DNA of 64,000 bases from Macrostomum lignano (taxonomy: Eukaryota). Shown here in pieces: positions 34,129 to 58,630 of the stretch. The stretch covers positions 124,001 through 188,000 of the forward strand of contig NIVC01000166.1 in NCBI GenBank assembly GCA_002269645.1, written 5' to 3'. Every line of letters begins with the position of its first letter. Positions within the stretch are counted from its first letter, which is position 1. The position numbers and the translations under genes were made by a program. Below the pieces are notes generated by a model. That model worked only from the letters and a program-made list of their open reading frames with translations. It searched no databases and was not told the DNA's origin.

Positions 34129-34453
34129 AGTAGTAATATACGTTACAAAATTGCCAGCAAACCGTTCTCATAATTCAATCAGTTTTACCCTTTATCAGTG
34201 TGAAATGACTCGTTTTCCCTTCATTATCGCTCGTCTTCACTTCGCTCAACTCGCTTCGCTCATCCTCGCTTCATTTCGGTCAATCTCCCTATTTCACACT
34301 TACAACGATTAATTCCCATTGAATTATGAGAATACGCTCTCGTCGTTCGCTTTGGTTTGCTGGCAATTTTGTAGCGCACCCAACACTTCTAACACTTCCA
34401 ATTCTCTATAACCCCTCGCACGCGCCGCAGGCGCGAACGGTCTTTTTCTGTTA
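34129..34453 (+). repeat. Left TIR (325 bp)
   Basis: Reverse complement of 59490-59814 with one mismatch seen. Confidence 0.95.
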
Positions 34454-34459
34454 TAAAAA

Positions 34460-34774
34460 ATGAACCGAGTTTACACCTTTTCTGTTAGTGATACTTTTGA
34501 GACTGTTGCTAAAAATGCAGAGATAATAAAACAACATATTTTGAATGGAATAATTGATGAAGTTTATTTAAAGTATGATGATAAGCACGACCTAAAACTT
34601 TATCCATTAGAGTTGGATGGGATGTATGATTTAGAACAAGAGGGTGAGTTAATATTTCAACTTGGAGATTATTTAAATTCGGATGATTGGGAGGTTCGTT
34701 CAGATGATTCCAACTCAACAAATAGCTCATATGAAACTAGTGATTCTGAGAATGAAATTGAAATTTTTATGTAA
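34460..34774 (+). CDS. Viral hypothetical protein, acidic C-terminus (104 aa)
   Basis: ORF with TAAAAAATG start context directly inside the TIR. Confidence 0.6.
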   Translation: MNRVYTFSVSDTFETVAKNAEIIKQHILNGIIDEVYLKYDDKHDLKLYPLELDGMYDLEQEGELIFQLGDYLNSDDWEVRSDDSNSTNSSYETSDSENEIEIFM

Positions 34775-34777
34775 AAA

Positions 34778-35002
34778 ATGAACTATTACTCTATAACAGA
34801 AACGACATTTATTGTGAAAAATATATATAAAAAAATGAAGGTAAACTACTCCTACATCGGAAATGTGCCGATTAATGAACTTAATGAAAATTTAAGTTTG
34901 ATATCTGTTGAACAAATGTCAATAATTATATTAGTAACAATAATAGTAATAATATTGTTTTTGTTTGTTATAAAAAATTTACTTCCCTGTTGCCTTAAGT
35001 AA
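34778..35002 (+). CDS. Small viral membrane protein (74 aa, one C-terminal TM helix)
   Basis: Hydrophobic run IIILVTIIVIILFLFVI; TAAAAAATG context. Confidence 0.55.
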   Translation: MNYYSITETTFIVKNIYKKMKVNYSYIGNVPINELNENLSLISVEQMSIIILVTIIVIILFLFVIKNLLPCCLK

Positions 35003-35012
35003 TTGTTCAAAC

Positions 35013-36646
35013 TTAGTTAGCAGACATTAGCTGGTTCTCATAAAAAGAACCTAATATTTCTTCACCATCCTTATCAGCAATTATATAGGTTGTAGGATTT
35101 GTATTTAAAACTTTACTGATGGTAAATTTCTCACTTATCTTCCAATATCCTTTTCTTCCTTTTTCAAACTTATCTTTCCATTTATAGATATAAACAGAAT
35201 CACCAACTTTAAAATCATTAGTTTTCTTTTTTTCAAATTCTCCAAAAGTAACTTTAACGTTTTCAGGATTGTTATAAGCTTGTTGAGGAGTCATCTTTAT
35301 AGCCGAATGATATGAATTATTATAATCTTTCACGACGTCTGGTAATATTTTTACCCACTTTTGGTTTCCATTAAGACTAAACTGAAACCACAATTTCTTA
35401 CCTAAAGTTCGATTAAATCTTTCAATTAATGCATTTTTGCTTTCTCCATAAATAGAATAAATTTTATTAATATACTCCCCATTCGCGTCTTTTTTCCTTT
35501 CTTGTCCTTTTTCAAAATGATATAATTTATACATATGAGGATTGTAAAATTCTTTTCCCTCATCAACACACAAGCGTTCGCTTTTTTCATCAAGACTTCT
35601 AAAAGCAGCAGCAACATCCTCTCCTTTTTTGGATTTCAAAGGAACTGCCCACGCGTATCGAGTAAAACCATCCAATATGGTTAAGATATATTTATATCCA
35701 CTATCGATCGGCATCGACATTAAATCAGCATACCAAATTTCATTTTTTTTGAAGTTCATGATTTTTCTATAAAATTTAGGTTTTCGATATTCTTTATGAA
35801 GAATCTTTGCCTTATCAGAACTTAACCCACTGCCACTTAATAGTAAACACTCAACACAATTATTTCCATGTTGATTGTAATTAATTCCCAAACCAAATTT
35901 AACTTTAGACTGCAGAATCTTTTTAACCATCCACCTAGTTAATCTTTGGCCTACTGACAATCCTTGTAAGTTATCTAATCCTTGAATCATTTTTTGATCG
36001 GCTTCATGTTTTAATCTTAATGCTTCCTCGGGTGAGTTCTTATCAGCATCTCTGTATGCTAAGTCATGATAGTATGCTAACCAATCAATACCGTTAATGG
36101 GAATTGAATCAGCTTTTGGAGTGTCATCAGGATTTAATCGGAGATCGAGTCGAGTCAACCCGGCCTTTATACCTTTGCTTTCACAAAGGAGTAGACTGTG
36201 TCTTAAGCTATCATAAGGATTGACTAAGTCCCTCAAGCCCACCAGCGTACAGTCGTTGCATCTCAACCATACTCAAGTCATACGAGGTTAGGTTTTCGAT
36301 TCACTCTTGTCCATATATATCTTCAAGCTTGTTACCGTTGGGAACAGGAGTTACCTGTGTTCCTTCAGAAGATTTCTCAACTGAAGTGGTACTTGAAGCT
36401 TTAGGAGATTGAGTGAGCGGCCGGTGTTGCCACTAATAGTGACTAGCAGTAGGTTTGCTTCTACCACTCGGGCACAGCTCGAGCTCCACCCGTGAAATTA
36501 TGCGATGGCAGGTGTAATTCATTTGTATACCTTCCAGTAGTAAAAACGCTTGGTAAGCTTGTTAATCCTTTTTGTAAGTCTAAAAATCCTCCTTCAAATA
36601 CTAATTGGTCGAACCTACGGTTCGTGAACATCGTTCGGTTGCTCAT
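35013..36646 (-). CDS. PLA2 (parvovirus/adintovirus-type) fused in frame to rve integrase, interrupted by a group I intron
   Basis: Exon 1 (36646-36488) ends ELHLPSHNFTG. Exon 2 continues TRLDLRLNPD…PINGIDWLAYYHDLAY (PLA2 HD motif), then integrase D-D-E (WYADL, VDEGKEF, ERFNRTL) and a Polinton-type C-terminal domain. Confidence 0.85.
36156..36487 (-). ncRNA. Group I self-splicing intron, IC1-like (~323-332 nt; 3' splice site ambiguous between 36165, 36164 and 36156)
   Basis: P1 CGGGU/GCCCG with U.G at the 5' splice site; P3 CACCGGC/GCUGGUG; P4 UCACUC/GAGUGA; full P5abc (P5a CUUCAAG/CUUGAAG, A-rich bulge, GAAA-capped P5b, P5c); P6 AUC/GAU; P7 A(C)GACUGU/ACAGUCU; J8/7 AAGAC; P9 CCUUUGU-GAAA-GCAAAGG. 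Confidence 0.9.
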
Positions 36647-37130
36647 TTTTAATCTTTGAAAAACACTTTTCTATCATTTTAATAATTTCCAAATATTGAT
36701 CACCATATAAAAAATTTAAAGCAAATTCCCCAGTTAACAAGGTAACTCCATTATCAAATACCTTTTGTACGGGGTTTTTAGTAGTATTATTAATGCAAAT
36801 ATAATATAAATCAAATTCGGGATTAACATATTTAAATTCTAATAACTTTTGAATATTTCTAAATCGACTTGATGAATTATCTGTATTATCAGAAGATTTT
36901 AATTCTAACGCAATTTTTCTTTCGGTATGAATTAAATCAATTTTGTTTATTTTTTCAAAACCAAAATGTTCAATAGCTAATAATTCATAAAGATATCCAA
37001 GTCTCATTTGAATTGTTTTAATACGGTTTGCAATTATTAATTCATCTTGAAATATCTTATTTAGTATTCTGTCAGAACCAGCCTTATCATAAATAGGTTT
37101 ACAAAGACAATCTTTTATCGTATTTTCCAT
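36615..37130 (-). CDS. PD-(D/E)XK restriction-endonuclease-like protein (171 aa)
   Basis: LGYLYE…KIDL…ALELKSSDNTDNSSS…KL resembles the Eco47II/Sau96I-type pattern D…E-x-K-x-x-x-N-T-x-N-S-S-S. Recognised by eye. Confidence 0.65.
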   Translation of the reverse strand: MENTIKDCLCKPIYDKAGSDRILNKIFQDELIIANRIKTIQMRLGYLYELLAIEHFGFEKINKIDLIHTERKIALELKSSDNTDNSSSRFRNIQKLLEFKYVNPEFDLYYICINNTTKNPVQKVFDNGVTLLTGEFALNFLYGDQYLEIIKMIEKCFSKIKNEQPNDVHEP

Positions 37131-37157
37131 TTTATAAAAAATAAATTTAACAATTAA

Positions 37158-37829
37158 TTAAACTCCTGTATGTCCAGCAGCTTTCGCAGCAGCTAAAACT
37201 AGTTTTCGCGGAGTTTTAAATCCTTCTCCAACAGCCGGTTTGTTATTTATAGAACCAACAATTCTTTTATACAACCCAGTATTTTTAACACCTCTTGTTC
37301 CTAACTCATCATAAAAATTTTTTGCACTTACTAATTCATCTCTAGTATAGAAATCAGGGTCAAATTTTACCTTCGGGTTCATAACAATATTAAATGCTCC
37401 ACCCAATTCTCTTAATAGCTCTTCCCGATTTTTATCAACTCCACCAATTCGATAATTATTATTACCTAAATCTGTCACAGCAATACTAGGTGGCAAATCT
37501 CTCCTAAATTCCTCAACTCTACCCAATTCTGCACGTCTAATCTCATCAACTCTACTTACCGCTTGAGCAGCTCCATAAGTAGGCGGCTCATCTAAAATTT
37601 CATCCTCTTTTGGTTCGGTATTCTTAGCAATTTTTTCCAGAAGCTCTTTATCTGTTTTTTCTAGTTCACTAATTTTCCCCGTAATAGGATTAACAAAAGG
37701 AGCAGCAAATCTTTCACCCGCTAATTGTATTCCTAACTTTCTTTTTTGTAAATTTCTAACAAAATCAGAATATCTTTGCTTCTCTTTATAAATCGCTAGC
37801 TCTCCATCAACGTCCATAAATTGACTCAT
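37158..37829 (-). CDS. Conserved Polinton-type hypothetical protein (223 aa)
   Basis: N-terminal helical segment with NPITGKI, reminiscent of the F.PIT..L Polinton proteins. Confidence 0.55.
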   Translation of the reverse strand: MSQFMDVDGELAIYKEKQRYSDFVRNLQKRKLGIQLAGERFAAPFVNPITGKISELEKTDKELLEKIAKNTEPKEDEILDEPPTYGAAQAVSRVDEIRRAELGRVEEFRRDLPPSIAVTDLGNNNYRIGGVDKNREELLRELGGAFNIVMNPKVKFDPDFYTRDELVSAKNFYDELGTRGVKNTGLYKRIVGSINNKPAVGEGFKTPRKLVLAAAKAAGHTGV

Positions 37830-37863
37830 TTTTTAACATAAAAAACTTTTTTAACTTAAAAAA

Positions 37864-39339
37864 ATGGCTGAAACAAAAACTATATGGAGTGATAAATTTC
37901 ATTTCAAAAAGCACCGTCAGTATATTAATGAGGTTAGGGCAAGAGATTTAAATTTTACTCTACCAACAAGTGATAATTCAAATAACTTTACTACCGGAAC
38001 GGTAACTTTTGACATCGGTGCAACCAACACTATATTGGATATGAAAAATGCGTTTTTCCGTGTTAGATGGTTGTATACCAGAAATGATGGAACTGCTCTT
38101 GCTGCCGGTGATATCGCAGATCGTTCTGGAATAATAATAGAAAATGATTGGTTTTATAAATGTTTTTCCCAAGCACAACTATCAGTTAATGGAGCCGAGG
38201 TTGAGACAGCATCAAACCCCGCAGAGATTAATGGAGTTTTGAAACATTTAAATTATACTTATTTATCAAAACAAGTTGGTGATAATGTTGGGTGGATGCC
38301 TGATAAGGGTAATGGACAAGCAGTAGTTTTCCCTAATGTACAAAACGCAGCAGCTTGTGCAGATGCCGCAACTCTTGTTGCTTATCTTAATACCAATATA
38401 GTTCCAGTTGTAACCACCATGACTAATACAAAAGATATTAATACAGGTTTTATAGATCGTCAGAATAAATTCCCAGTCGCGGTTTTAACCACAGCAACAG
38501 CATATGAGCAGGACTTCTCAATCTTCCCGCTATTTGGGTTCTTCTCACCAAATCGGGTATGGAAAGGATTAAAATTTGGGATACAGTTGCAAATATCTGG
38601 TGGATATCAGCCTAGGATACTTTATGGAACCTCAATTTCAACCGATATAGCAGTTCGTATAGATTCAATTCAATTAGTTGTACCAACTCTTGAGGTAACA
38701 GCCCCACTTTTAAAACACATCGATAATCAGTTAACGCACGATCAGGATATATTTTATTTGAATCGTCGACATTTTATGCGAACCATTAATAATAATCAGG
38801 ATTCATTCCAGTGGCAGATAATTACATCAAAACGTCGGGTGAGATATATTTTTGTTTGGTTTAAAATAACAAACAGAAGGAGTAAAAGAGCAAATGGGGA
38901 TTTATATTGGCTTCAATCCGGTGCCATAGCAGAACAAGCAGCCACCGCATCAGACAATGCGGCTTCAGCTATTAACGAGTTTAATGTTCAGAATATCCGC
39001 CTGCAGGTTGATGATCAATATTATCCGGTTAAAGACCCCCTTAATCTAAATATAGCAAATAATAATGTTAATGATTTTATAAAATATTATCAAGATTATG
39101 TCAAAAATGAAGCGTATGCAGTCCCTCAGTACACACCCACAGAATTTCTAAACATTCATCCAGTGGTTGTTTATGATCTAACGGCACAGAAAGAAAACGT
39201 AGCCAATGTTGGACTTAATTACATGTTAGAGATTAATAAAACCGGCAATCAGGCAATCGACGCCCACGTATTGTTTCTAGAGGAATATATGTCAATTGCT
39301 AAAGCTGATGGCACGATTGTTCGTGACGCCCCGCTGTAA
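37864..39339 (+). CDS. Major capsid protein (double jelly-roll, Polinton PY type), 491 aa
   Basis: Size, beta-rich composition, motifs LSVNGAEVE, RYIFVWF, IRLQVDDQYYP and HPVVVYDLTAQ, and position before the ATPase. Confidence 0.8.
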   Translation: MAETKTIWSDKFHFKKHRQYINEVRARDLNFTLPTSDNSNNFTTGTVTFDIGATNTILDMKNAFFRVRWLYTRNDGTALAAGDIADRSGIIIENDWFYKCFSQAQLSVNGAEVETASNPAEINGVLKHLNYTYLSKQVGDNVGWMPDKGNGQAVVFPNVQNAAACADAATLVAYLNTNIVPVVTTMTNTKDINTGFIDRQNKFPVAVLTTATAYEQDFSIFPLFGFFSPNRVWKGLKFGIQLQISGGYQPRILYGTSISTDIAVRIDSIQLVVPTLEVTAPLLKHIDNQLTHDQDIFYLNRRHFMRTINNNQDSFQWQIITSKRRVRYIFVWFKITNRRSKRANGDLYWLQSGAIAEQAATASDNAASAINEFNVQNIRLQVDDQYYPVKDPLNLNIANNNVNDFIKYYQDYVKNEAYAVPQYTPTEFLNIHPVVVYDLTAQKENVANVGLNYMLEINKTGNQAIDAHVLFLEEYMSIAKADGTIVRDAPL

Positions 39340-39398
39340 GCGGTGCAGGTCTCCGACCATCGCCCCGTTGTAAAATTAGTTAAATTTTTTCTTTAAAA

Positions 39399-40154
39399 AT
39401 GGTAAAAGCAAAACACGATAAAATATTTCCAAATGATCCTTTTCTTTGTTTAGTAATCGGAGGATCAGGTAAAGGAAAAACACACTTTGTTTACGATTTA
39501 TTAACAACAGATGGAATGCTAGACTATAATAATTTAATAATTTATACTAACAAACCTAGAATAAAATATTATGAATTTCTTAAACATGGATTAAAAAACA
39601 AATTAAAAAAAGATATTATGTTTAGAATGTTAAGAGCATATGAGCAATATGAGGACGATGATGAACCAAGATTTACCCTCGACGACATTGAGGATTTATG
39701 TAAAACAACCGCAAAAGAACCGGAAAACACCACCGAGAGAGCCCCAACTGTTAGAGTATCAACCCGATTATCCTATGATCAAATTCCAAAACATGATAAA
39801 ACACTAATTATTTTTGATGATTGTATTAATGATGGTGATCAAGAATTGCAAAAGGAAATTTTTGTTAGTGGTAGAGGAGATGGAATTGGAGCTTTTTATC
39901 TAACACAGTCCTTTAGAGATTTAGAATCGATTATAAAAAAGAATGCTAGCTGTTGTGTAATGTTTGATTTAGATAGCTATGATTTACAAAATATACACGC
40001 TAGATTTAATCCGGGGTTGGATATAAAACCATTTAAAAGTATGTGTAAAAAAATTTGGGATGATAGCCAATACAAACATATTTATATCAATCCGAGGTTA
40101 GAAAGGAAACATAGAATTTTAAAAGATCTTAACGAGGATAACGAGGAGGAATAA
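39399..40154 (+). CDS. A32/FtsK-like genome packaging ATPase
   Basis: Walker A GGSGKGKT, Walker B LIIFDD, and GR…YLTQS. Confidence 0.92.
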   Translation: MVKAKHDKIFPNDPFLCLVIGGSGKGKTHFVYDLLTTDGMLDYNNLIIYTNKPRIKYYEFLKHGLKNKLKKDIMFRMLRAYEQYEDDDEPRFTLDDIEDLCKTTAKEPENTTERAPTVRVSTRLSYDQIPKHDKTLIIFDDCINDGDQELQKEIFVSGRGDGIGAFYLTQSFRDLESIIKKNASCCVMFDLDSYDLQNIHARFNPGLDIKPFKSMCKKIWDDSQYKHIYINPRLERKHRILKDLNEDNEEE

Positions 40155-40200
40155 TCGTTCCTTCGGAACGCATGCTTCGCATGATTCTTCCACTATAAAA

Positions 40201-40986
40201 ATGGCTACAAATTTAGACACTATAAAACAATTGGTAGATCGAACTAATTCAAAATATAGTACAACCTTACAGTTTATAATGACAACCAGTGAACAACGTA
40301 TTCAATTGCGCGATCCGTTACAACTCGATCAAAGCCTAAGTTATCAAATAGGTTTGATATTATTTTCAGTTTTTAACATGCCTCAATTAATTAATGCAAC
40401 AAATAATCAATTTAGATATTCTAAAGATTCCGGAGCCAATTGGACAACATTTAGCGTTAACCCAGGAGCATATTCTTATACCGATTTGAATGCTTATATA
40501 GAAGGAGAATTAACAGCTAATGGAGATTGGGTAGCAGGCGCGATTGTTATAGGGGTTGATTTACCATCTGGAAGATTCACACTATCACTAGGATCCGGAT
40601 ATCAGGTTGATTTCACAATTGCAAATTCACTCAGAACCATACTCGGATTTAATTCCCGAATCGTTACCACATCAAGCACCGGCGATACAGTGGGAAATAT
40701 TGAGGGTGGAGTTAACACAATTAATATAACAACCGACATATCAAATGGTGGTTATATAACAGACGATAATGGAGTTTTGGTTCAACGTGGAATTATTTAT
40801 TCAATCCCATTTCTTGCTGTTCCAATTGGAGAGAAAATGATTGTTTCACCCCAAACCCCTATATATTATCCTTTAAATCAATATAGTGTTCAATCAATTT
40901 ATATTAGGATTGTAGATGAAAGCGATAGATTAATAAGTTTTGGCGGACAGTCAATAACGGTAATTTTACGGATAAAACAGGTTTAA
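40201..40986 (+). CDS. Minor capsid (penton) protein
   Basis: C-terminal PIYYPLN…SIYIRIVDE.DRLISFGG…LRIK pattern typical of Polinton pentons. Confidence 0.75.
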   Translation: MATNLDTIKQLVDRTNSKYSTTLQFIMTTSEQRIQLRDPLQLDQSLSYQIGLILFSVFNMPQLINATNNQFRYSKDSGANWTTFSVNPGAYSYTDLNAYIEGELTANGDWVAGAIVIGVDLPSGRFTLSLGSGYQVDFTIANSLRTILGFNSRIVTTSSTGDTVGNIEGGVNTINITTDISNGGYITDDNGVLVQRGIIYSIPFLAVPIGEKMIVSPQTPIYYPLNQYSVQSIYIRIVDESDRLISFGGQSITVILRIKQV

Positions 40987-40996
40987 CATTGTAAAA

Positions 40997-41170
40997 ATGG
41001 GTAACAATAATAGTTTAAAAAAACAATCAGATAAAGTTCAAAATGCAAAGGATAATTATGAAATCGAACTAACAAAATTGAAACAACTGCAAGCAGAAAA
41101 AATACGAAAGGAGTTGTTAAAATCCAAACCTACGAAACTAACCAAAACCAAGAGTTTTTCAGGAACATAA
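40997..41170 (+). CDS. 57-aa basic protein with N-myristoylation consensus (MGNNNS), absent from the ORF track
   Basis: TAAAAATG start; fills the gap exactly between penton and protease. Confidence 0.6.
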   Translation: MGNNNSLKKQSDKVQNAKDNYEIELTKLKQLQAEKIRKELLKSKPTKLTKTKSFSGT

Positions 41171-41171
41171 A

Positions 41172-41612
41172 ATGACTTTGAATTGGCAGTTATTCAAACA
41201 AAGATATGGAACTGACACAACAAGCAATATTGAATTAACAAATTGGGCGCGGCAGTTAAAAATAAAACCATTCAGATGTGTTATGCGAGATGAGATCAAA
41301 GACTTACCACAATATGGATCTTACATTGTCAATATAGAAACAACAAAAAAAAATGGTGTTCATTGGTCAGCTCTTTATTCCAAACCAAAACTTGTTTATT
41401 TTTTTGATTCATACGCGCTTCCTCCGTTACAGGAAATAAAAGACAAATTTAATCATACTAAAAATCGTTTATGTGGAGATCACCACGAACAATTTCAAAC
41501 ATTTGATAAAAGTTATTGCGGGCAAGCAGCGTTGTATTTTTTATATAAAATTAATAATTCTAAGGAAAGACCCGAAGACTTTAAGAATATCATACAAAGC
41601 ATGCGTGCCTAA
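41172..41612 (+). CDS. Adenain/Ulp1-like cysteine maturation protease
   Basis: GVHWSAL (His), YFFDSY (Asp), Q…SYCGQ (Gln/Cys). Confidence 0.92.
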   Translation: MTLNWQLFKQRYGTDTTSNIELTNWARQLKIKPFRCVMRDEIKDLPQYGSYIVNIETTKKNGVHWSALYSKPKLVYFFDSYALPPLQEIKDKFNHTKNRLCGDHHEQFQTFDKSYCGQAALYFLYKINNSKERPEDFKNIIQSMRA

Positions 41613-41679
41613 GGCACGATCGGACGGAGTCCGCGAACCTTCGGTTCGATTTTATACTCTATAAAATAGACAGTAAAAA

Positions 41680-43551
41680 ATGATATTTTCTGGAACACCC
41701 TCATGGAACGGAACAACAAGTACTGGTGGTGGTACATCTGGTGGAATAAGTGTTACATTCGGAGATAACCGATATATTAATGAAGATGAAGGTTATAAAA
41801 AAACTGAAATTGATAATAAACTAAATTTAAAAAGAAATGTTGCAGATTCCTATACCAAAACTGAAATCGATACTTCATTAAATTTGAAAAGAGATATTAG
41901 TGATTCATATACAAAAACAGAAGTTGATAATGGGTTAAATTTAAAAAGAGATATAACCGATTCTTATTCTCGAACTGATTCTGATTCGCGTTATGTTCAA
42001 ACCACCGCAACCGGAACCTTGGATATGGACAACAATCGAATTATAAATGTTGCAATTACAACGAATAACTCGGTAGTTGATAAGAACTATGTCGATAATC
42101 AGGTGGGTAGTCGTAACGGCAATATCAATATGAATAATTTTAAATTAACAAATTTATTATTTGGAACAGAGGCCACAGACTCGGTAAATCTCGGGCAGGT
42201 CAACGCTCGAGCTAATGTAACCGACACCGATATTTTTACCACGCCGCTTACATCAAATACTTCAAATCCAGATGTTGTTCTTACAGCATCCGAAAATAAC
42301 AACGATGCTTTTCGAGTTGGAGATGGAAGCCTTGCGACACAATGGTCACCAAATACCGGAACCACAACCAATATGGAAATTCAATTTGAATTTTTAGGTT
42401 ATAATCGAAGAATAAATGAATTAAGAATTACAGGCAGCGCAACAATTGATATTCCATCGGGATGGTCGGTTCGTGCAAAAAATGTTGCTACCGATGCATG
42501 GACGGTATTACGAACGTCGGGATCCCCAATTCAAGCAACTTCATTAGCATTAACTAATTCAACGGTTAATTTTTGGAAATATTATAGCGTTTTATTCCCA
42601 ACTGGTGGAACAGTTACACAGCCTATCGAGGTTCGTCTAATACAATTATTTGAACACCGAGTTGAAATTCAAGATCTTAATTGGCCGAATCAAATACTTT
42701 CTGCAACCCCGCGAGCGTACGTAGATCAGGTAGCAACCCCAACATCAAATGGCAGAGTGTCTGCTGGTGATAAAAATAAATTGGATAACATTCCCGCGAT
42801 TGATGCTGCATTATTCGAAGCAGTAATTTGCAATTGGACTGGATATCAAAATCCAACAACCGCCGGAGATATATATCCAGTTGGTTCTTTAATTGGCGAC
42901 GCTTCTTATATCGATTATCAAAATGGTGCTAGAATTACTCGTGAAACTGCTGGAGTAAGTGGTGCATTACAATTCAATTTCACACATTTTCAAAATATAT
43001 CTGTGTCTTTCTTTTTCAGAGTTGCTAATGCTACAGGAGGTGGTGCAGATGCGGTTTGGTTTTATGCATATTGTCACGAACGACCAACAAGCGAAAGCGG
43101 GACGGGTTTAGCAACAGACGCTGGATTGATAGTTTTTGCAAGTGAGTGGCATGATAAATTTGGCCTAGTTTGGAGTTCTAAAAAATCAGACGGATCAACC
43201 CGCGCGGATGTTAATACTGACGCGGATCAAACTGTAGACTATGCAAATATTGATAATGGTGATTGGCATTTATTTGAAATTAATATTTTAAATCAAAGGG
43301 TTTGGTATAGATTACATTCATACAATGTCTCAGCCGATTCTTATACCCTCATTGGGCAGAACGTTTTCACATATGATAGTGGAAATTGGGGAACTTTAGA
43401 TAAATCTGGAACTCTTATGGGTTTTGGTGCTCGAACTGGAGGATCGGATGCTGCACATTTTATTCGTGGTGCCGCCGTTTGTGGTAGCACATCATTTGGT
43501 TATGTTTTTCCATCTACCGCATATTTGGAAAAACCGCCTGTAGCAATTTAG
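41680..43551 (+). CDS. Fibre/spike-like receptor-binding protein (623 aa)
   Basis: YTKTE(I/V)D..LNLKR repeats x3-4 and MDNNRI/MNNFKL shaft-like repeats, then two beta-rich modules resembling discoidin-like and ConA-lectin-like folds. Confidence 0.6.
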   Translation: MIFSGTPSWNGTTSTGGGTSGGISVTFGDNRYINEDEGYKKTEIDNKLNLKRNVADSYTKTEIDTSLNLKRDISDSYTKTEVDNGLNLKRDITDSYSRTDSDSRYVQTTATGTLDMDNNRIINVAITTNNSVVDKNYVDNQVGSRNGNINMNNFKLTNLLFGTEATDSVNLGQVNARANVTDTDIFTTPLTSNTSNPDVVLTASENNNDAFRVGDGSLATQWSPNTGTTTNMEIQFEFLGYNRRINELRITGSATIDIPSGWSVRAKNVATDAWTVLRTSGSPIQATSLALTNSTVNFWKYYSVLFPTGGTVTQPIEVRLIQLFEHRVEIQDLNWPNQILSATPRAYVDQVATPTSNGRVSAGDKNKLDNIPAIDAALFEAVICNWTGYQNPTTAGDIYPVGSLIGDASYIDYQNGARITRETAGVSGALQFNFTHFQNISVSFFFRVANATGGGADAVWFYAYCHERPTSESGTGLATDAGLIVFASEWHDKFGLVWSSKKSDGSTRADVNTDADQTVDYANIDNGDWHLFEINILNQRVWYRLHSYNVSADSYTLIGQNVFTYDSGNWGTLDKSGTLMGFGARTGGSDAAHFIRGAAVCGSTSFGYVFPSTAYLEKPPVAI

Positions 43552-43568
43552 AAATATTTCTATATAAA

Positions 43569-43895
43569 ATGGCTTTTAGTAGAACCCCATCGATGCGACA
43601 AAATAATGTTATTATTCCAATTCCTAAACAAGAATCAAATATAAAAACTTTTAAATCTCATACGCGAATTTTATTTAGTGGAGTGAATGTTCAGGATAAT
43701 AAGAAACTTCAAGAATTAATTAAATTATTAAAAAATCATATTATCCTTCAAGAGTTTTGGAAAATTGGATTTAAATGGGAGAAAAAAGAAAGAATAACTC
43801 CAATACAATACCTATTAAGCTCAGGACAAATCCCCAAAGAGCGCGGGGAATTCATTTTGGTGCTATTAAAAATAGACGAGAATGTCGGTGTCTGA
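43569..43895 (+). CDS. Viral hypothetical protein (108 aa)
   Basis: ORF with TAAAATG context. Confidence 0.55.
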   Translation: MAFSRTPSMRQNNVIIPIPKQESNIKTFKSHTRILFSGVNVQDNKKLQELIKLLKNHIILQEFWKIGFKWEKKERITPIQYLLSSGQIPKERGEFILVLLKIDENVGV

Positions 43896-44538
43896 AGCAG
43901 ATAAAAGGGAACGTGACCATTTTAACCAACGTAAAGGCCACATGTTAAGTAATGTTGATCGTATTAACTATGATTATGATTTATATAGTAAAAAAGTAAG
44001 AAGAGTTTCAAATCATATCAGAAATATGGATTTTTTCAATATTGGATTTGGAAGTTTATCGATGTTATGTGTAATCGTTTTAGGTACTTTACAATCTATT
44101 CCAACTCTTAATTTATCTCAATTATTTTTAGGTATTTCAATTGGCTCAATATCAGGTTTTGAATTAATTAGAAGTTTATCAATACTTTTAGCAATTAAAT
44201 TATATCTTAAAAAAAGAAAGGAAAAATATAAATCATTAAGAGACGTTGCAAAACAATATAAAAATCAGTTATATTTATATGTGCAAAAAATATTGGATGA
44301 CGGAGAGATAAAAATTCACGAGTTATCAACCGCGGTTGAATTATATGAAAAATATTTAAAAGATCGAAATAGAATTTTAGATGTTGAAACTTTTACCGAT
44401 ATAGAATTAAAAGAATTACGTTTGGACAAACCCAAAGCTCCACCTATAGATACATTAGGTATTTACGAACCTGAAACTATAACAATGGGTGTACAAAGCC
44501 CGCGGTCAGGAAGCGCTGTGGAACTTAATGTTGTTTAA
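43882..44538 (+). CDS. Viral two-TM membrane protein (218 aa)
   Basis: Two hydrophobic segments flanked by basic helices. Confidence 0.6.
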   Translation: MSVSEADKRERDHFNQRKGHMLSNVDRINYDYDLYSKKVRRVSNHIRNMDFFNIGFGSLSMLCVIVLGTLQSIPTLNLSQLFLGISIGSISGFELIRSLSILLAIKLYLKKRKEKYKSLRDVAKQYKNQLYLYVQKILDDGEIKIHELSTAVELYEKYLKDRNRILDVETFTDIELKELRLDKPKAPPIDTLGIYEPETITMGVQSPRSGSAVELNVV

Positions 44539-45047
44539 TCATGAATTGTCATGTGTACAAAGTACAATTTATTTAATGCATACGTTATATATTCTTCCCA
44601 AAGTGGTAAATCTCTTTTAATTCTAGGTTTAAATTTTTTATCAATACATAAAAATTCCAATGACTTTTTCAGTAACATTTCGTTAGGTATGTTACCTATC
44701 CTTATAAACTTTGTATTCTCTCGCATAAGAAAATTAAAATAATATCCAACTAAAATTAAAATCCTTTCGGAGTCTTTCGAACTTAATCCCTTTCCTTCAT
44801 TTAAATGGAAAAAGTTGTTATATAAATAAACATTATTTCCGGGTATTAAAATTGGATCAGATATGTCTCTTGTAAGATTTCTTAAAATTGTGTTTTTAAA
44901 ATAGTAATATGAGTTTTCAATCTTTTTTGTTTTTTCAAATTGATATATTTTAGAACATGAATAACACATATGATATATATCTCCGTTTGCTGTTTGAGCT
45001 CTATGCATAGTCACATTACATTTTTTACATACATAAATGTCTTTCAT
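44535..45047 (-). CDS. Zn-finger protein (CxxC…CxxC), possible transcription factor
   Basis: CKKC…CYSC at the N-terminus. Any relation to poxvirus VLTF3 is only a guess. Confidence 0.5.
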   Translation of the reverse strand: MKDIYVCKKCNVTMHRAQTANGDIYHMCYSCSKIYQFEKTKKIENSYYYFKNTILRNLTRDISDPILIPGNNVYLYNNFFHLNEGKGLSSKDSERILILVGYYFNFLMRENTKFIRIGNIPNEMLLKKSLEFLCIDKKFKPRIKRDLPLWEEYITYALNKLYFVHMTIHD

Positions 45048-45075
45048 TTTTTTTGTTATTTTTTTAGATTAAAAA

Positions 45076-45408
45076 ATGGAGAGCTGGTTCAAAACCGATT
45101 CTAATGTGATTAATTATCTCACAACAAATATGTTGGAGAATAAAGAATATAATATTATATGTTTGAGACAGGTTAAATTTATTGGACTTCAATCGATATT
45201 TTTACAATTAGATGGTCAAACAATACTATGTCTAAGTGGGAATGATGTTAAAAATTTTCCAGTTTTAGTTATTAATAAACCTAAAGCATTCATTATAAAA
45301 TACAGCACCGAGGGTGGGTTGCAATTTAAACTAAAACAAACAAATAATAAAAAGAGTGACAGGACTGTAAAATTGGCTTCCGTTTGGGAGGCTGACGAAG
45401 ATGACTAA
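45076..45408 (+). CDS. Viral hypothetical protein (110 aa)
   Basis: ORF with TAAAAAATG context. Confidence 0.55.
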   Translation: MESWFKTDSNVINYLTTNMLENKEYNIICLRQVKFIGLQSIFLQLDGQTILCLSGNDVKNFPVLVINKPKAFIIKYSTEGGLQFKLKQTNNKKSDRTVKLASVWEADEDD

Positions 45409-45685
45409 ATTTTTTTATAAGAAAATGGAGACAATAAAAATCCTTATCACTAAAGAGCGTGAACTTAATGATATTAATAAAAAAATAAATATAATGTTTT
45501 ATAGTGATTATGGGGACGACATGTTTCCCATTCGATATGAGTTGGATAAAAAAATGCGTTTTATAAAAGCTGCGATTGCTTATGCTGAAACAGTAATTGA
45601 AATTGAAATAGATAGATTGGTTAGACGAATAAAAGTACTTAGGAAAAAAAATAAAAGAATGTTTAAGTTACCCTGCCGACTGTGA
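45401..45685 (+). CDS. Viral hypothetical helical protein (94 aa)
   Basis: ORF overlapping the previous stop. Confidence 0.45.
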   Translation: MTKFFYKKMETIKILITKERELNDINKKINIMFYSDYGDDMFPIRYELDKKMRFIKAAIAYAETVIEIEIDRLVRRIKVLRKKNKRMFKLPCRL

Positions 45686-45749
45686 GGATAATTGGTGCTC
45701 AATAAAATATGAAATCGAATTGGATATTATGCTTAAACAATTACATGCT

Positions 45750-48700
45750 TTAGTTTTTTTCAAGCGCTAGTTCATCAATATCGAACTCAAAACAATTATA
45801 ATCAACATCAAATAGTAAACTGTTATAATATTCAATTGAATGTTCGTGTTGCGGTTTGTCATCAAAATAGTTTTTAAAGAATGGTTTCATAACTCCGTTT
45901 TTATCCGGTTTTTCTCTTTTAAATGTGTTTATCGTAGAAGTATATGTTTTTGATATGGTTGAACCGCTTTGAGGAATTATTATACCACCTTCAAACGTTC
46001 GTTTCCACGGAGCATTATTATTTACTTTTATTTTGACTGTCCATCATATAAAGTTTTAAACGATGCAAAATTAATCTTATCATTTGCACATCCTTTAAAT
46101 GTTTTTTTCTCTTCCATAATAAAATCATCTTTCAACAAAAGACAATATTTAATTTTAGGAGCGATAAAATATCCGAATATAATTCCACCCTCTCCATAAT
46201 CGTTTTTTCCTTGACTTAAATTATTTCCAACATGACCGTTTTTATTTAATGTGTCCCAATGTTTTTTATGTATATATAACGAATCCGTATCGCCGTAATA
46301 AATTTCTGGAGTCTTTGAACCATCTATAGAGGCGATAAAATTATTCATTATCCTTCTTGAATGAGCTAAGATAAATATTCCTAATTGTGCCGGACAAAGA
46401 CCTGTTGTAGGATTATCATCCTCTTCTAGATATTCTTGTGTGTCTTTCTTTTTTTCAACATAATATAAATCGTCACATATTTTCTCATATGACTTAATTG
46501 TGTCATCGTATTCTGTTTTTAATGTATTCAAATTCCAGAGATGCGTTGTGAAAGTAATGTCTCTTTGAACCGTTTTACCATATAAGGAATTTAACAATGT
46601 TTTTACTAATTCAGAACCCGCCTCGTTATTTTCTTTTTTAAATACTTTTCTCATTTCAAAAAGGGTTGTAATATAATTCTGAAACGGAGAGAAATCGTAA
46701 TTTTTTTCATATATAATTCCACTATATATCTTTAATATTTTTCCACCCATTCTTACAATTTCTTGTATGTCTACGGAACATAAGGTGTCGATTACCTTTC
46801 CATTTCTAAACCTATTTAATGTTTTTGTTTCGTTTGCTTTTGTTTCCGGATTATAAAATTTCTCTTTATCTTTCGATGGGAGATGTTGAAGAAAAACGGT
46901 GGTAGGGTTCTCATACATAATCTTTAAAACCGCTGTTTTTGGTCGAAAGGTTTGTGAATTAAATTGTGTCAAAAAATCCTTTTCCTCGCTTATATCAAAA
47001 ACTCTGGCTGTTTCTGCTCTTGGATATTCACTATCCTTATCAGACATAGCAGATGGGTACAACGAGACTCCATCAAAATTCATTAAACAATCTGATACGG
47101 TACCCAATTGGTTTTTTAATTTAATTGCGATTTTCTTTTTTTCTTCCATATCGCTTTTGAGATAAGTTGATATAACCTCGCATGGGTCGCTTGTTGGTAT
47201 TTTTAAATGGTCTTTTACAACGTCTACAATTGTTTGAAAACAGTCACTTTCGTATTTATTTATTAGTGCAAATACTCTGCCTCCTTTGACTGCGTCCCTC
47301 ATAAACTTTCTTATATAAGGGTTGGTATGAGAGTGAACCGAAAATTCTTTTCTTAATAGTGTTTGATATTTTGCTTTATCAAGTTTGCTCAAGTCAAAAT
47401 AATCTTCGATTTTCAGAGGAGATATAATTTCTTCAACTTTTTTAATGTAATTACTTTTTTCTTTTGTCTTTAGGTATTGTTTCATTTTGTCTTCAACTCT
47501 AACAAAATCTTTAAACCAACATTTTAATGTTAAGCTCGAACATGTAAGAGCATCAAACATTGTCATTCCTCCAATTTCATATGCTATTTCATTATACTTA
47601 TGAATACAGGCACATAAAGAAATAAGATCAAATTGTAAATATTCATACCATTCATCCATGCGCTCTAGGTAGTCGTGTTCGGTAATGTCGTGAACCATTG
47701 ATGTCTTGCGCAAATCCTCTCTAATTGTCATTGATGAGCAAAACTTTTTTAAACTCATTGATGCGTGTTGATATGAACAAAGCATTGTAATGGTTTGTTT
47801 CGAATCCTTGTGATTCTTCTTCTTATCTTTGTTTATAAACGCACTAACCTCTTTTGACATATAATCGTTTACAAAAGTGATTGATAATATTCCTCTTGAG
47901 GTTTTAAGAATTTTAATTGGTTTTATATTACAAAATAGTGGTATGTATGAATCGAAGCGGGATGAGTTGTGTGCGATCAAAACAATCTTTTTTGACCTAA
48001 CTGTACCAAGGTATTTAAACATTTTTCTAACACAGTCAACCTTTGGTTGCGAACCTTCGGTACGATCGGACTCCATCCGCGAACCTTTGGTTCGATCCAT
48101 TTTATCTCCATCTGTTTGAAAATCACAACCGCGATCTGATATCAAGATCTTAGTTAGTTTCTTTATTGTTTCTGGGGTTTCGTTACAATTATTAGAAAAG
48201 TCGTTATAGTTTAAAAGACCAACTGCATACGGGCATGCTTGTTGATTATAATTTAAATATGTTTCAAAATCAAATATGTATACATTTGATTTATTGGGAT
48301 TTGTGGGTGTATTAAACATTTTTATCTCTTTAACATTTTCAGACGTTGGGTTTTTAAATACTACTTTATAATTGTTTTTTATCCGTTCAAGACCGATTCC
48401 TCGTTGTTTATTAGATATAAGACAATAATGACCAATGTGGTAATCGGGTGTGTGATAGTAATTTATTAATAACCAGTCGTGGTGAATCCCTCTTTGAGAC
48501 TTTGGTTCAATTCCACGATTATTAGGATTATACAGCCCTATATTAAGATTAAAATATTCGTTGAATTTTCCAATTCTTGAATTTGTCATTAATCCTCTTT
48601 GGGTTCTTGAGTCGTACAACCAACCACCATATTCGTCTTTGGATGGGGCTTTATCACCATAAATAAACTGAACACACTTGTAGAAACAATTTCCATCACT

Positions 48701-49180
48701 AGGTATGTAGCAGTACTCATCTTTATACTCTGCAATTTCACACATGACATTTGTGCCCATACCCTGCTTTGACCTTTCGTGTTTAAGTGTGATTTCGTTT
48801 GGTGTCATTTTAAGTCTTCCAGAAAACACACTTAAATTCATGTCGTAGTTTTCTACCAAATGCTTAAACCAAGCTTGAAATTGACTTATATTATAAAATG
48901 TTGCTAAGTATTGATTAATCTCTTCGCGATCATCTCCGGTTTTATTATAAAAATATTGTACCCTCGCATTAGTAATTTCAACACTATATCCGTTTGAAAG
49001 CTGGGTTTCAATAAAATCTAGGACATTCTGCATTGGTTCAAATCGATAAACCCTAATAAACTCATCTAATGATTTTTCATTCGATTTATTCTGCGCTTTC
49101 CGACGTATTTGTTTCTTTTGGTTTTTTTCTAATTCTGCTATTCTTTTTTCATATTCAGCCTTTTCTATTAAACGCTTCAT
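45750..49180 (-). CDS. polB: Protein-primed family B DNA polymerase; apparent 1-nt frameshift at ~46035 cuts off the last ~90 aa
   Basis: Exo motifs FDFET, HNSSRFD and LQFD; polymerase motifs DGVSLYPSAM, KTLLNSLYGK and YGDTDS. A second frame continues APWKRTFEGGIIIP… to a TAA at 45752-50. Confidence 0.93.
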
Positions 49181-49399
49181 TTAATATTCTGCCCTTATAT
49201 TATTTGCTAATGCGTTTATTTCCTGTTCTTGTCTTTCTCTTTCTCTCTGCCTTTCTCTCTGTCTTTCTCTTGCTCTTTGGCGGCGTTGTTGTCTTTGGCG
49301 CTGTTCAATTTGTTCAATCTGTCTTTGTAATCGATTGAACTGTTGGCGCTCATTTGCAAGAAGTTGTCGAATCTGATCTGGGGTCATTCTTTGTTCCAT
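49181..49399 (-). CDS. Small Arg/Gln/Glu-rich coiled-coil protein (72 aa)
   Basis: RQRERQRERER low-complexity helix; stop abuts the polB ATG. Confidence 0.55.
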   Translation of the reverse strand: MEQRMTPDQIRQLLANERQQFNRLQRQIEQIEQRQRQQRRQRARERQRERQRERERQEQEINALANNIRAEY

Positions 49400-49483
49400 T
49401 TTATAGAATAAAATTTATATAATGTTTGAATTATTGATTTTTTAATTTTGCGTTTTTAGTGTCCAGACCCTCCCCCCAGGAGC

Positions 49484-50458
49484 CTATTCGAAATCTGCTT
49501 TTGGTAATAGCAATCCATTTCCCATAACGTTTGAATTTAAGAAAATTCCTGAACCTGCTTTTGGTCGCATTTCGAGATATAATCCGCTTCCATCGTGTTT
49601 TTCAATGATGTTAAAATCTTTTCCTAAATTATTAAAAATCTTCTGAACTGCTGGCCTAAAATTAGCTCCAATATTATCAAAAAATCCTTTAGCTTTCTCA
49701 CCCGTTTTTTCTAAAGTTTGACCAAATTCCTGTAGTTTATCTGCGACAACTCCGCTTCCTTGGGTTGTTCCTTTTAGTACCAAACCGCTGCCATTTAACA
49801 GTAAACCTTTTCCGGCTGCTAACCTAGCTTCTGCATTTCTTTTTTGCTCTGCTGTTGCTGAACTACTATTAATGGTATCAATAAGTTTCTGTTTGAATTG
49901 TGCGTCCTGTGTTATTTGCTGTCTTTGAAATTCTGCATCTCGTTTAGCTTTTTCATCCGCAGCTTTTTTATCATTTACTGCTTTTGTGATTCCAGCTGCA
50001 CCCCCTGCTATTCCACCAGCTGCTCCTATTCCTGCAAAAATTATTGGTAATAAAGTTGCTAGTGGTAATATTCCTCCTTGTTTTGCTTTTAATTCTGCTA
50101 ACTGTTTTCGGTTATCATGAATTCTTTTACCTGCTAAACCGGCTGCTCCGGCTGCTCCGAGGCCTAAAAGAATTGGTAAAATAGGTAACAATCCACCGTC
50201 TTTTTTAGTGTGAGTCTCCAATAAAAATTTTACATCGGAGTCTGTCAGCCTATAATTTCTACCATGATTCTTAAAGGATATTGGCCTTCCTTCTTGTGCA
50301 TATTTTGCAGCAAGTTTAAATGTATCGATATCGTAGTCAAGTTTTTTACCTAAACGATCCAATCTTTTTAACATTGTGTGACTATGTTTATTATCGTCTA
50401 GATTTAAAGTGTCTACAATTTCTCCTATAAAATATAAGCGATCATTATCCGTATCCAT
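49484..50458 (-). CDS. Virion core / membrane-active precursor protein with repeated GG and GxGL motifs (324 aa)
   Basis: KKDGGLLPILPILLG and KQGGILPLATLLPIIFAGIGAAGG hydrophobic segments; repeated GKGL/GSGL/GSGI/GNGL. Confidence 0.65.
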   Translation of the reverse strand: MDTDNDRLYFIGEIVDTLNLDDNKHSHTMLKRLDRLGKKLDYDIDTFKLAAKYAQEGRPISFKNHGRNYRLTDSDVKFLLETHTKKDGGLLPILPILLGLGAAGAAGLAGKRIHDNRKQLAELKAKQGGILPLATLLPIIFAGIGAAGGIAGGAAGITKAVNDKKAADEKAKRDAEFQRQQITQDAQFKQKLIDTINSSSATAEQKRNAEARLAAGKGLLLNGSGLVLKGTTQGSGVVADKLQEFGQTLEKTGEKAKGFFDNIGANFRPAVQKIFNNLGKDFNIIEKHDGSGLYLEMRPKAGSGIFLNSNVMGNGLLLPKADFE

Positions 50459-50468
50459 TTTTATATTG

Positions 50469-50859
50469 TTAAAATTTTTTTAATCCTTTTCCGCCTTTAA
50501 TAGTGGTTAACATTTTATTAAAATCCTGAATATCTTTATTACTTATTGGCGTGGTTTTCGTGGGGGTTTCTGTTGGTTGTGCGGCTTGTGCCAGCTTTAA
50601 ATCTTTTATTGCATTTATTTGTGAGAGGGTGTCGTTAAAATCTCTCAATTTCTTTAGTTCTTCTGCCGCTCTAGTTGCTTCAATTCCTCCTTTTACAGCA
50701 TTTGTTATAGAACCTGCTGCGGAGCCTGCTTGCCCTATAAGACCCATATTGTCTTTAACAAAATTCGCTGCTGTTCCAACCACATCAAAAAGTCCCTCAC
50801 CTCGGTATTCAATTGGGTCTCCTACCTGCAATTCGTTCAGATTTTGCATATGAGTAACG
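50469..50859 (-). pseudogene. First gene inside the right TIR, split by the Gypsy insertion (true start ATG at 59471-59469)
   Basis: Removing the Gypsy and one TSD copy gives AAAAA-ATG ACA CAC GTT ACT CAT ATG CAA (MTHVTHMQ…), in frame with ORF 50849-50469. Confidence 0.8.
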
Positions 50860-51689
50860 TGTCACGTTATTGGCGTAGCGGCCAGCTATGCGGTGACCCT
50901 TAAAAGGGCCGTTTTAGTCCCAAAATAAGTTGAAGTCAATTCTTGTAAAGCGGATTTTGTAGCGGAGCACTTGGCGATAAAGGCAGGAACTGCCGTAGTT
51001 GTCTTTATTGTTAATATCAGTATTAAGTTTGGTTGTTACTGGCAATAAACAGACTATAGCTTTCTGGGCACTGGCGGCTGCAGCAATGGGTTGAATATAA
51101 TTTGGATATGAAGTCAAGTGGCAGGCGAATGACACAATGGCGACGTGACGTGAGCAGTGGCTATGATCACAGTGAATGCAGTGAAACGTAGTGGTGAGTT
51201 GGCGTCGGTCGTGGCGTGAAACAGTCAAGTAAGTGTGTGAGCAGGCTGGCCCAGACAGAAGGGCCGTGGTGAGAAATAAGGAGGCTCGAGGCAGCCAGAC
51301 AAACAGATAAGACAACTAAGAGGCCGCAGGGAAGGAAACAAGGGACAGGTGGAGGAGAGACGAAAAAGGGGTGAGGGGTGCCCGCCGCCAGGCGGGGGGT
51401 TTAATAAAAGAGCGCAGAGGGGGGTAGCGCGAGCACGAGTGATTTCATTGGCTGGCGAGAGAACTTAAAATTATCGATCGTGCCAATTTTATACGGTTGC
51501 GAGAGAGGATAGCAAAATATACAATGAATTATAAATTGCCACAAAATCGTTGGGCACTACTACAAGTAAACGTCGCAATAAACGAATGGAAAAGTTTAGT
51601 TGAAACGGTGAAACTGAAGGGTTGAATGACTATGGAGAACAGCAGTCCAACGGCCCTTTTCGGGACCACCTTAAACTGACAACGTCACA
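50860..51689 (-). repeat. 3' LTR (830 bp)
   Basis: Near-identical to 58631-59459 (one substitution and one G-run indel noticed). Confidence 0.95.
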
Positions 51690-53815: not shown

Positions 53816-53827
53816 AAAAACTGGCGG

Positions 53828-58624: not shown

Positions 58625-58630
58625 AAATTA

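Follow-up and report, generated by a model that had tools for sequence, protein, structure and literature searches.

A group I intron in a Polinton gene of an animal nuclear genome and a restriction-derived nuclease with a probable role in homing and immunity at a 5-bp site

Introduction

How could a self-splicing ribozyme come to lie in a protein gene of an animal nucleus, and what would keep it at one position there? This question is raised by contig NIVC01000166.1 of Macrostomum lignano, of which positions 124,001-188,000 (a stretch of 64,000 nt, referred to below as the window) were analyzed; genome searches were run over the 764-Mb assembly. A Polinton/Maverick element in the window carries a gene encoding PLA2 fused to an integrase, and an insertion in this gene had been predicted to be a self-splicing group I intron. 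Nuclear group I introns are described as confined to microbial ribosomal DNA (rDNA) in the passages of two sources that touch on them (PMC3679873; PMC8395846). The insertion studied here is almost certainly a genuine group I intron, located in the nuclear DNA of an animal. Judging from its sequence context, this intron and a restriction-derived nuclease are fairly likely to act together in homing and immunity by means of a 5-bp cutter.

The intron and its fold

On the minus strand, the intron starts directly past the glycine codon of the PLA2 Ca-loop, in agreement with the claim that the insertion splits this loop motif; its 5' boundary at 36487 is firm. The glycine codon is the last codon of exon 1, and its U makes the U.G pair of P1. 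Without splicing, the reading frame reaches a stop at 36463-61, as had been read from the sequence. Of the predicted boundaries, 36156..36487, only 36487 proved secure: 36156 is one of four candidate Gs for the 3' end and would drop a conserved Pro-Gly.

The covariance-model check proposed in the original prediction gave a match of Rfam RF00028 to 36172-36489 with 38.8 bits (E 3.1e-8). A scan of the whole window at the Rfam gathering thresholds returned no matches; the intron was missed because its score is under the RF00028 cut-off of 50 bits. All 15 helices checked were fully paired in the window copy, including P1 with its U.G pair, P3, P4, P6, P7, P5abc and P9 with a GAAA loop, and the complete core pairings, unusual P4, P5abc and GAAA-capped P9 described earlier were thus recovered. 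The homologous arm of P6a also pairs, as judged by eye. P7 contains the guanosine-binding pair G36254-C36194 (G264-C311) with bulged position 263. At 36292-36287/36271-36267 there is a near-canonical 11-nt receptor, one base off what we take to be the consensus. The folding z-score of the window intron was -2.97, and 1 of 100 shuffles was equally stable.

Three intron families occupy one PLA2 site in this genome, with about 140 matches. The window's intron belongs to family A; the other same-site introns of the genome make up families B and C, and the same PLA2 site also carries an intron in a metagenome contig, L093 (80.6 bits to RF00028). Covariation was studied in a set of 17 distinct cores, with 8 of 77 loci unparsed. 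It was found that 576 of 595 core cells were paired and that 21 of 35 core positions had two-sided changes. The U.G pair that P1 forms at the 5' splice site was present in all 17 distinct cores and the G264-C311 pair in 16 of them.

In family A, an IC1 type was borne out for the periphery and not for the core. Family A has P2.1, P5abc with an A-rich bulge, a GAAA loop and a receptor, all of the IC1 type, but 5 of its 6 P4 pairs differ from the canonical IC1 core, J3/4 is 3 nt long and J6/7 reads GCA. Because J3/4, P4, P6 and J6/7 are non-canonical, family A was not filed as IC1 on its sequence; in family C and L093, the canonical motifs of these four elements are present. P2 and P5abc of family A are 92-94% identical to those of family B (92-93% for P5abc), but its P6-P7 stretch has only 52-56% identity to B, C and L093 (54% to B), yet is fully paired. 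Because P2/P5abc are near family B and the P6-P7 stretch is not, the family A intron is a mosaic. The 5' extension of its guide sequence is 14 nt long versus 9 nt in most B and C copies, and where family A has a G-C pair in P1, families B and C and L093 have A-U. Family A probably still splices.

Same-site introns and intron-less alleles

Family A was represented by at least 24 copies among 40 scored of 177 candidates. Families B and C together gave 116 pattern matches, and among the 100 listed, 77 were B and 23 were C by hand count. The 28 genome hits scored with RF00028 were all family C, at 72.7-91 bits and above the 50-bit cut-off, which was also exceeded by two other same-site relatives, L025 (61.8 bits) and L093. 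The survey for alleles with and without the intron, also proposed earlier, yielded 22 intron-less alleles that join at this position (19 of C type and three of A/B type), in which the loop reads Gly-Pro-Gly-Thr. In 20 of the 22, the glycine is spelled GGC and not GGT, so that the site reads GGSCC. Two public proteins read through the 3' end of the intron.

In a tree of exon 2, A and B introns interleave. Family A introns are 97.5% identical among themselves versus 94.7% for their exons, and the G-ending copies of family B fall in two parts of the intron tree. In family B (for example, L073 and L060), pairs 4-5 of P7 are exchanged and a G occupies position 306, with G264-C311 and P9.0 kept. In L024 (G000:C249), the core of a family A intron is interrupted by about 830 bp of inserted sequence. 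One small hairpin element is repeated within the Polinton, at 36610-36624 (in frame at the start of exon 1), 41634-41648 (between genes) and 48080-48094 (inside the DNA polymerase open reading frame (ORF)); inserts akin to it lengthen family C introns and probably also the 339-nt variants of family B.

Loss of GGNCC and the insertion site

The insertion separates the Gly codon of the PLA2 loop from the Pro codon next to it. Whatever codons are used, Gly-Pro reads GGNCC in DNA, and the intron splits this word. It was found that GGNCC does not occur in the 16,732 bases of the Polinton, whereas 18.2 +/- 3.9 occurrences were expected and 0 of 100 shuffles were as low; it is the most depleted of 256 gapped words. 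The flanking host DNA is normal in this respect (87 vs 73 and 52 vs 42). Shuffling of codon order gave 15.4 (0 of 300 as low), and synonymous shuffling with the protein fixed gave 5.2 (3 of 300), against zero observed, with normal counts in control ORFs (43 vs 44-47). The loci compared, which are non-independent, contained 2 GGNCC in 81 kb against 80 expected in family A, 0 in 81 kb against 91 in family B and 9 in 79 kb against 116 in family C. The Gly-Pro dipeptide is the lowest of 291 dipeptides, with 0 against 9.3 expected.

The insertion site is the sole GGNCC in three of four intron-less loci, and L089 has a second one. The GGC codon in 20 of the 22 intron-less alleles is as expected if GGWCC alleles have been converted. 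Among 76 readable relatives, the loop keeps Gly-Pro in 71 and has Gly-Ala in 4. In the PLA2-integrase relatives P0179, P0182, P0185 and P0193, Gly-Ala replaces Gly-Pro and the latter dipeptide is absent altogether, which may represent a second route to the loss of GGNCC.

The nuclease

The window encodes a free-standing, restriction-like PD-(D/E)XK nuclease, probably of the Eco47II family (Table 1). With RE_Eco47II (PF09553), the window protein scored 25.3 bits (cut-off 25.9), a family C copy 30.1 bits and the L093 protein 18.5 bits. The AlphaFold model of the window nuclease had a predicted local distance difference test score (pLDDT) of 88, and its closest folds were EcoO109I and AvaII; EcoO109I (Z 9.6, root-mean-square deviation 3.6, 166 aligned) was the only one of 48,161 structures with Z >= 8. 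We take the sites of these enzymes to be RGGNCCY for EcoO109I and GGWCC for AvaII. Searches of viral contigs with the nuclease, a nuclease alignment and exon 2 found no relatives.

The nuclease gene lies inside the P2.1 loop of the intron in all 26 parsed family C loci and in L093. Six of nine public homologues of the nuclease run on into ribozyme (intron) sequence. The nuclease is thus linked with the intron, being inside it in family C and L093 and beside it in part of the A/B loci. At A/B loci, the slot upstream of exon 1 may instead be occupied by an HNH/endonuclease VII-like gene (for example, L091:119-688), which codes for some 190-206 aa with a zinc finger and alternates with the Eco47II-like gene.

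The 3' splice site

The candidate 3' ends of family A are G36165, G36164, G36159 and G36156. The tail of the intron contains Pro-Gly codons (36163-36158) followed by two bases (36157-36156) that are absent from intron-less alleles. The same 8 tail bases were present in 23 of 23 family A matches, and the explanation of the two extra bases as a private mutation or an assembly error was therefore rejected. According to the intron-less alleles, the homologous boundary is before the Pro codon, near 36164, and in family C and L093 the terminal G stands directly before this codon (G in 23 of 23 C copies listed). Family B ends in A in 66 of 77 copies listed (hand count), with P9.0 kept.

The four candidates were ranked by judgement, each being unlikely when taken singly. 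G36164 comes first as a possible site; it is homologous to the end of the L093 intron and has a compensated 2-bp P9.0, and a stop comes two codons on, owing to the two extra bases. The next is G36165, an in-frame and likewise doubtful choice that would place Ala after the loop glycine, as in 4 of 76 relatives. G36156 was held less likely; it is in frame with strong offset P10 pairing, and the conserved Pro-Gly would be dropped. The last is G36159, an in-frame site with P9.0 and five straight P10 pairs, to which the lowest weight was given. Duplex energies of -6.7 to -10.8 kcal/mol did not separate the candidates, and an out-of-frame G scored -12.9.

A second excision is conceivable if G36164 is used, because the family A guide also pairs with the Pro-Gly codons. 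That family A acts twice, with G36164 used first and the dinucleotide 36157-36156 then excised, seems improbable. Such a double step, if true, would be a natural counterpart of trans excision-splicing, which is known in vitro and is described as non-native in the relevant passage of PMC2532722.

Expression of PLA2 had been said to depend on splicing, and its frame does stop in the unspliced RNA; integrase expression may depend on splicing as well, but an in-frame ATG at 35990 starts a 325-aa integrase frame without it. No record holding intron sequence is registered as RNA. Contigs of four presumed-RNA runs covered the unspliced family A intron, with no exon joint among the rows listed, and were not used for or against splicing.

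Proposed mechanism and alternatives

From the fold, the insertion site, the intron-plus and intron-minus alleles, the placement of the nuclease and the loss of GGNCC, all of which were observed, a course of cleavage, protection, conversion and splicing may be inferred. A Polinton carrying the ribozyme in its PLA2-integrase gene has integrated many times into the animal genome. Its nuclease would cut GGWCC or GGNCC, and the viral population would have purged every such site it could. At the conserved Gly-Pro, which forces GGNCC, the intron would split the site in DNA, and splicing would restore the message. An intron-less competitor genome would then be cut at its single site, the insertion point, and either destroyed or repaired from an intron-bearing copy during co-replication. 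Homing specificity would thus come from the purging of a short site and not from a long target. The nuclease would be intron-encoded in family C and collaborative, as a free-standing gene, in A and B. The family A message would probably be spliced at an in-frame G, with the loop altered and the integrase frame kept. Because homing nucleases need homologous partners to meet and not scattered integrated copies, it may be supposed that Polintons replicate and recombine as co-infecting genomes.

In its full extent, the proposal is that, in a Polinton lineage infecting animals, a 5-bp restriction enzyme of bacterial type without a methylase became a single-site homing nuclease through the purging of all other sites by the virus, that a ribozyme derived from giant viruses guards the one Gly-Pro site, which is difficult to recode, and that the ribozymes are active in animal nuclei, with family B ligating at a terminal A and family A maybe acting twice. 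This combination is possible and is advanced tentatively, as somewhat short of probable.

Several points weigh against homing and immunity with a 5-bp cutter. With regard to the ribozyme, the window intron is under the RF00028 cut-off, and two family B loci with a terminal A (omega-A) were not reported by RF00028 at E <= 0.01. The copies differ very little from one another and loci recur 2-4 times in the assembly, which makes the counts of insertions non-independent; 19 intron-less C-type alleles persist alongside nuclease-bearing ones, and the interleaving of A and B introns could be plain recombination. The window nuclease is just below the RE_Eco47II cut-off, and kinship with Eco47II does not fix cutting specificity. 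At A/B loci, this nuclease is free-standing in only 17 of 49, and the HNH-like gene fills the slot in 31 of 49. The depletion is firm for GGWCC, and GGSCC alone is weak (0 vs 3.2; 17 of 300). Because distant relatives likewise have few Gly-Pro outside the loop (9 vs 36), part of the Gly-Pro deficit is general to the PLA2-integrase protein. The word CCNGG is also low in the Polinton (3 vs 16.8). Finally, no partner methylase was found among 13 Polinton ORFs scanned with Pfam (8 of them had no Pfam match at all, and some short ORFs were outside the scan). The host DNA is full of GGNCC and has not been purged; considering this and the missing methylase, a nuclear 5-bp cutter should harm the host.

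As an alternative, a real ribozyme may shield the essential Gly-Pro site and have spread by ordinary recombination, without homing; the nuclease would then serve to attack host DNA, competing elements or a giant virus present in co-infection, or else an outside restriction system would exert the pressure. Giant viruses carry restriction-modification systems according to the passages of PMC12220804 on these viruses, the nearest viral introns were found on giant-virus-like contigs, a relative of the nuclease (P0041) is fused to a C5 methylase and A/B loci lack GGNCC regardless of the gene in the slot. This explanation was nevertheless considered unlikely since the nuclease is inside the intron both in family C and in the unrelated contig L093, which is the classic layout of homing, and since just three intron-less A/B-type alleles were found versus about 100 intron-bearing ones.

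Rather less likely, although compatible with the other alternatives, is that the introns of family A and of omega-A family B no longer splice and are in decay, lying in defective copies that are moved in trans. The low Rfam score, the non-canonical J3/4, J6/7, P4 and P6, the stop that follows G36164 because of the two extra bases and the terminal A of the 66 family B copies could all be read as decay. However, the core pairs were all kept via two-sided changes, exon 2 is open in 18 of 24 family A and 22 of 25 family B loci and three in-frame Gs are available in family A. Moreover, a missing terminal G need not abolish splicing: the passage on the intron ND5-717 of mushroom corals reports that, without a terminal G, it still ligates exons in vivo (PMC6545197).

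An improbable alternative is a neutral, parasitic intron whose spread depends on a homing nuclease of the conventional, long-target kind, either this one or the HNH-like one, with the GGNCC gap as an unrelated compositional or protein trait. The low Gly-Pro in distant relatives, the low CCNGG and CANTG in the Polinton and the similarity of the HNH-like slot gene to phage endonuclease VII/HNH families (E 2.8e-6) are in keeping with such a scheme, but GGNCC is the single word at zero, including in frames that do not code Gly-Pro, and it fits the insertion site as well as the sites of the nearest relatives of the nuclease. Independently of this, the low CCNGG and CANTG could reflect the HNH-like slot gene.

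The Polinton and its host genome

The coordinates of the features are given in Table 1.

Table 1. Features of the Polinton and its intron in the window (positions are those of the window)
Feature	Position	Strand	Basis and details
Group I intron, family A	36156..36487	minus	RF00028 E 3.1e-8, helices, covariation; 3' end is one of four Gs
Exon 1 of PLA2-integrase gene, 53 codons	36488..36646	minus	Intron-less alleles L089-L092
Internal guide sequence	36469..36487	minus	P1 arm 36473-36469 and 14-nt 5' extension able to form P1ex/P10
P5/P5abc	36325..36406	minus	A-rich bulge at about 36336-36326, GAAA loop 36376-36373
Catalytic core	36193..36426	minus	P3 36426-20/36246-40; P4 36416-11/36306-01; P6 36300-298/36262-60; P7 36256-50/36198-93
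J7/9, P9 with GAAA loop, 3' tail	36156..36192	minus	Helix check; family A matches
Exon 2, with remainder of PLA2 (HD..Y helix) and the rve integrase fused to it	35013..36155	minus	Pfam; fusion common in relatives
Free-standing PD-(D/E)XK nuclease, probable Eco47II family, 171 aa	36615..37130	minus	Pfam E 1.3e-5; AlphaFold; structure search
Polinton/Maverick	34129..59814	.	16.7 kb to 50860 and right end; terminal inverted repeats, 6-bp duplication, empty paralogue, Pfam pPolB/rve/A32
Left terminal inverted repeat	34129..34465	plus	98.8% identical to right arm; target duplication 34123-34128
Right terminal inverted repeat	59477..59814	minus	Target duplication 59815-59820
Gypsy-type long terminal repeat (LTR) element inside Polinton right end	50860-59459
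Candidate major capsid protein	37864..39339	plus	Size and position only
A32-type packaging ATPase	39399..40154	plus	Pfam
Protein-primed DNA polymerase B	46028..49180	minus	PF03175 E 2.4e-18

The Polinton context described earlier was confirmed. The element is a Polinton/Maverick because it has pPolB, an rve integrase and an A32 ATPase, terminal inverted repeats of 337 bp, a 6-bp target duplication and an empty-site paralogue of the target repeat (26606-26611). PLA2 and integrase form one fused frame in relatives. The capsid candidate gave no family or structure match in Pfam, PDB sequence, PHROGs and homologue searches, and its single-sequence fold model was uninformative (pLDDT 30). No significant matches to the double jelly-roll capsid, penton or cysteine protease of adintoviruses/polintoviruses were found among the window proteins; protease-like motifs were noticed by eye at 41172-41612. 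Gene order varies in the lineage: in many family C elements (for example, L035), the PLA2-integrase gene is about 500 bp from the terminal repeat, and in the intron-less L089 another viral gene is upstream of it.

The host is an animal, as had been assumed: the assembly gave 86 matches to Wnt and 141 to the nuclear-receptor domain zf-C4 (150 of 361 zf-C4 candidates scored). Nuclear-receptor (zf-C4) genes are present on C441, C87 and C2121, contigs that also carry copies with 99% identity to the window's intron, and B and C copies share contigs C506, C393 and C67 with Wnt. The arthropod cuticle family gave no candidate in the assembly and no match in the controls either; the closest clusters of the caspase are eukaryotic, with Arthropoda the most frequent among them. 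That the elements come from a protist or alga contaminating the assembly, for which it could be said that Polinton-like viruses of protists are known to bear group I introns (PMC12220804, in the passages on them) and that the window's own contig, C166, had no Wnt or zf-C4 match among those listed, is largely refuted and very improbable, since intron families A, B and C share contigs with these animal genes, the window copy has its target duplication within a host repeat and all intron-holding records listed bear one organism label.

The host repeat is present once empty (26444-27616) and once split by the Polinton (33961-34128 and 59815-60816), and it contains an ORF of 315-324 aa with no Pfam match. 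The Gypsy-type element is young, its 830-bp LTRs being 99.8% identical. Elsewhere in the window, at least four caspase-domain ORFs are clustered on both strands at 4325-16261; a reverse transcriptase/RNase H ORF (19668-21533), a piggyBac-like transposase (30400-31791) and a 23-bp satellite (62910-64000) were also observed.

Comparison with known systems

Local rDNA was tried as a source of the intron and rejected: the 13 listed 18S copies are 1812-1813 nt long and leave no room for an intron. In viral data, the P5b pattern had at least 117 matches. Of 120 viral loci tested, four were similar to the introns by blastn, and three of these reached the RF00028 cut-off. Three giant-virus introns (L140, L150 and L198) scored 53-88 bits to RF00028; in their main matches, which take in P5abc, they were 69-76% identical over 128-251 nt to families C and D. 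Their host genes are presumably capsid and VLTF3-like genes. Because of this identity, giant viruses are a plausible and, on sequence similarity, likely source of the intron. Family A had no blastn match among the 120 viral loci, and its core pattern had three viral matches, none of which reached the RF00028 cut-off. In L140 and L150 (IMG/VR, giant-virus-like), two group I introns stand close together in one gene, presumably VLTF3-like, and L150 has intron-like sequence at the end of a capsid gene.

The original prediction was aware of no reports of group I introns from Polintons/adintoviruses, but such introns have already been reported in Polinton-like viruses. According to the passages of PMC12220804 on this subject, these viruses, integrated in Rhodomonas, Paulinella and Desmodesmus, have RF00028 introns of about 310-380 nt in protein genes. 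PLA2 is described in the adintovirus paper and, in the passages concerned, no group I intron (PMC8502044), and a nematode paper, in its passage on HNH, merely speculates on its source (10.1101/2023.08.22.554363). In the literature covered, which did not extend to subscription papers and supplements, neither animal Polintons with group I introns nor an intron nuclease with a short site were found to have been reported; the tables of PMC12220804 and the database of PMC11835236 could hold entries. New here are the animal nuclear setting and the link with the nuclease, since group I introns in Polinton-like viruses were already known. The neighbouring nuclease and the missing GGNCC, neither of which figured in the original prediction, provide the likely reason for the intron.

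With about 140 matches in viral protein genes of an animal nucleus, ribozyme folding and splicing from animal mRNA become directly testable, and the locus offers a sequence-level reason for the position of an intron. Within one genome, the same nuclease occurs both free-standing and embedded in the intron, and these states correspond to stages proposed for the birth of mobile introns. For work on RNA structure, natural ribozymes that have a rewired core or end in A are useful.

Nuclear IC1 introns of the Tetrahymena type share with the present introns P2, P2.1, P5abc with an A-rich bulge, the GAAA loop and receptor, the 5' U.G pair and G264-C311. They differ in that the intron here is in a viral protein gene in an animal nucleus, P4, P6, J3/4 and J6/7 of family A are rewired and family B mostly ends in A. 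The nucleases of rDNA introns are of the His-Cys type in the relevant passage of PMC3679873.

Polinton-like viruses of protists likewise have group I introns in protein genes of integrated elements, but their hosts are a cryptophyte, Paulinella and a green alga, the cryptophyte intron gene is a short ORF adjoining the capsid gene and the passages concerned name no intron nuclease or site avoidance (PMC12220804). The giant-virus introns are in other genes and in another virus class than the Polinton intron.

Animal group I introns are mostly mitochondrial and of class IB4, with placozoans, corals and sponges named in the passages of PMC11835236. They are also in animal protein genes, and ND5-717 is without a terminal G, like family B, in the account of PMC6545197; however, their nucleases are of the LAGLIDADG type, and they are neither nuclear nor viral.

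Collaborative homing is known from phages, where, in the passages of PMC11296320, the nuclease is inside or beside an intron whose insertion splits its target. A long target, often over 20 bp, is given as the hallmark of homing nucleases in the corresponding passage of PMC3943268. The layout of nuclease and intron is the same here, but the target suggested by the evidence is a 5-bp site that has become unique because the word is avoided throughout the genome of the element.

Eco47II, EcoO109I and AvaII have the same Pfam family or fold and sites of the GGNCC type; the passage of PMC10305163 links Eco47II homologues to GGNCC "without certainty". Unlike type II restriction enzymes, the nuclease described here was found with no partner methylase, and protection seemingly comes from site loss and the intron. 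The system thus combines a known class of ribozyme with a new host compartment and an apparently new, short-site logic of homing and immunity.

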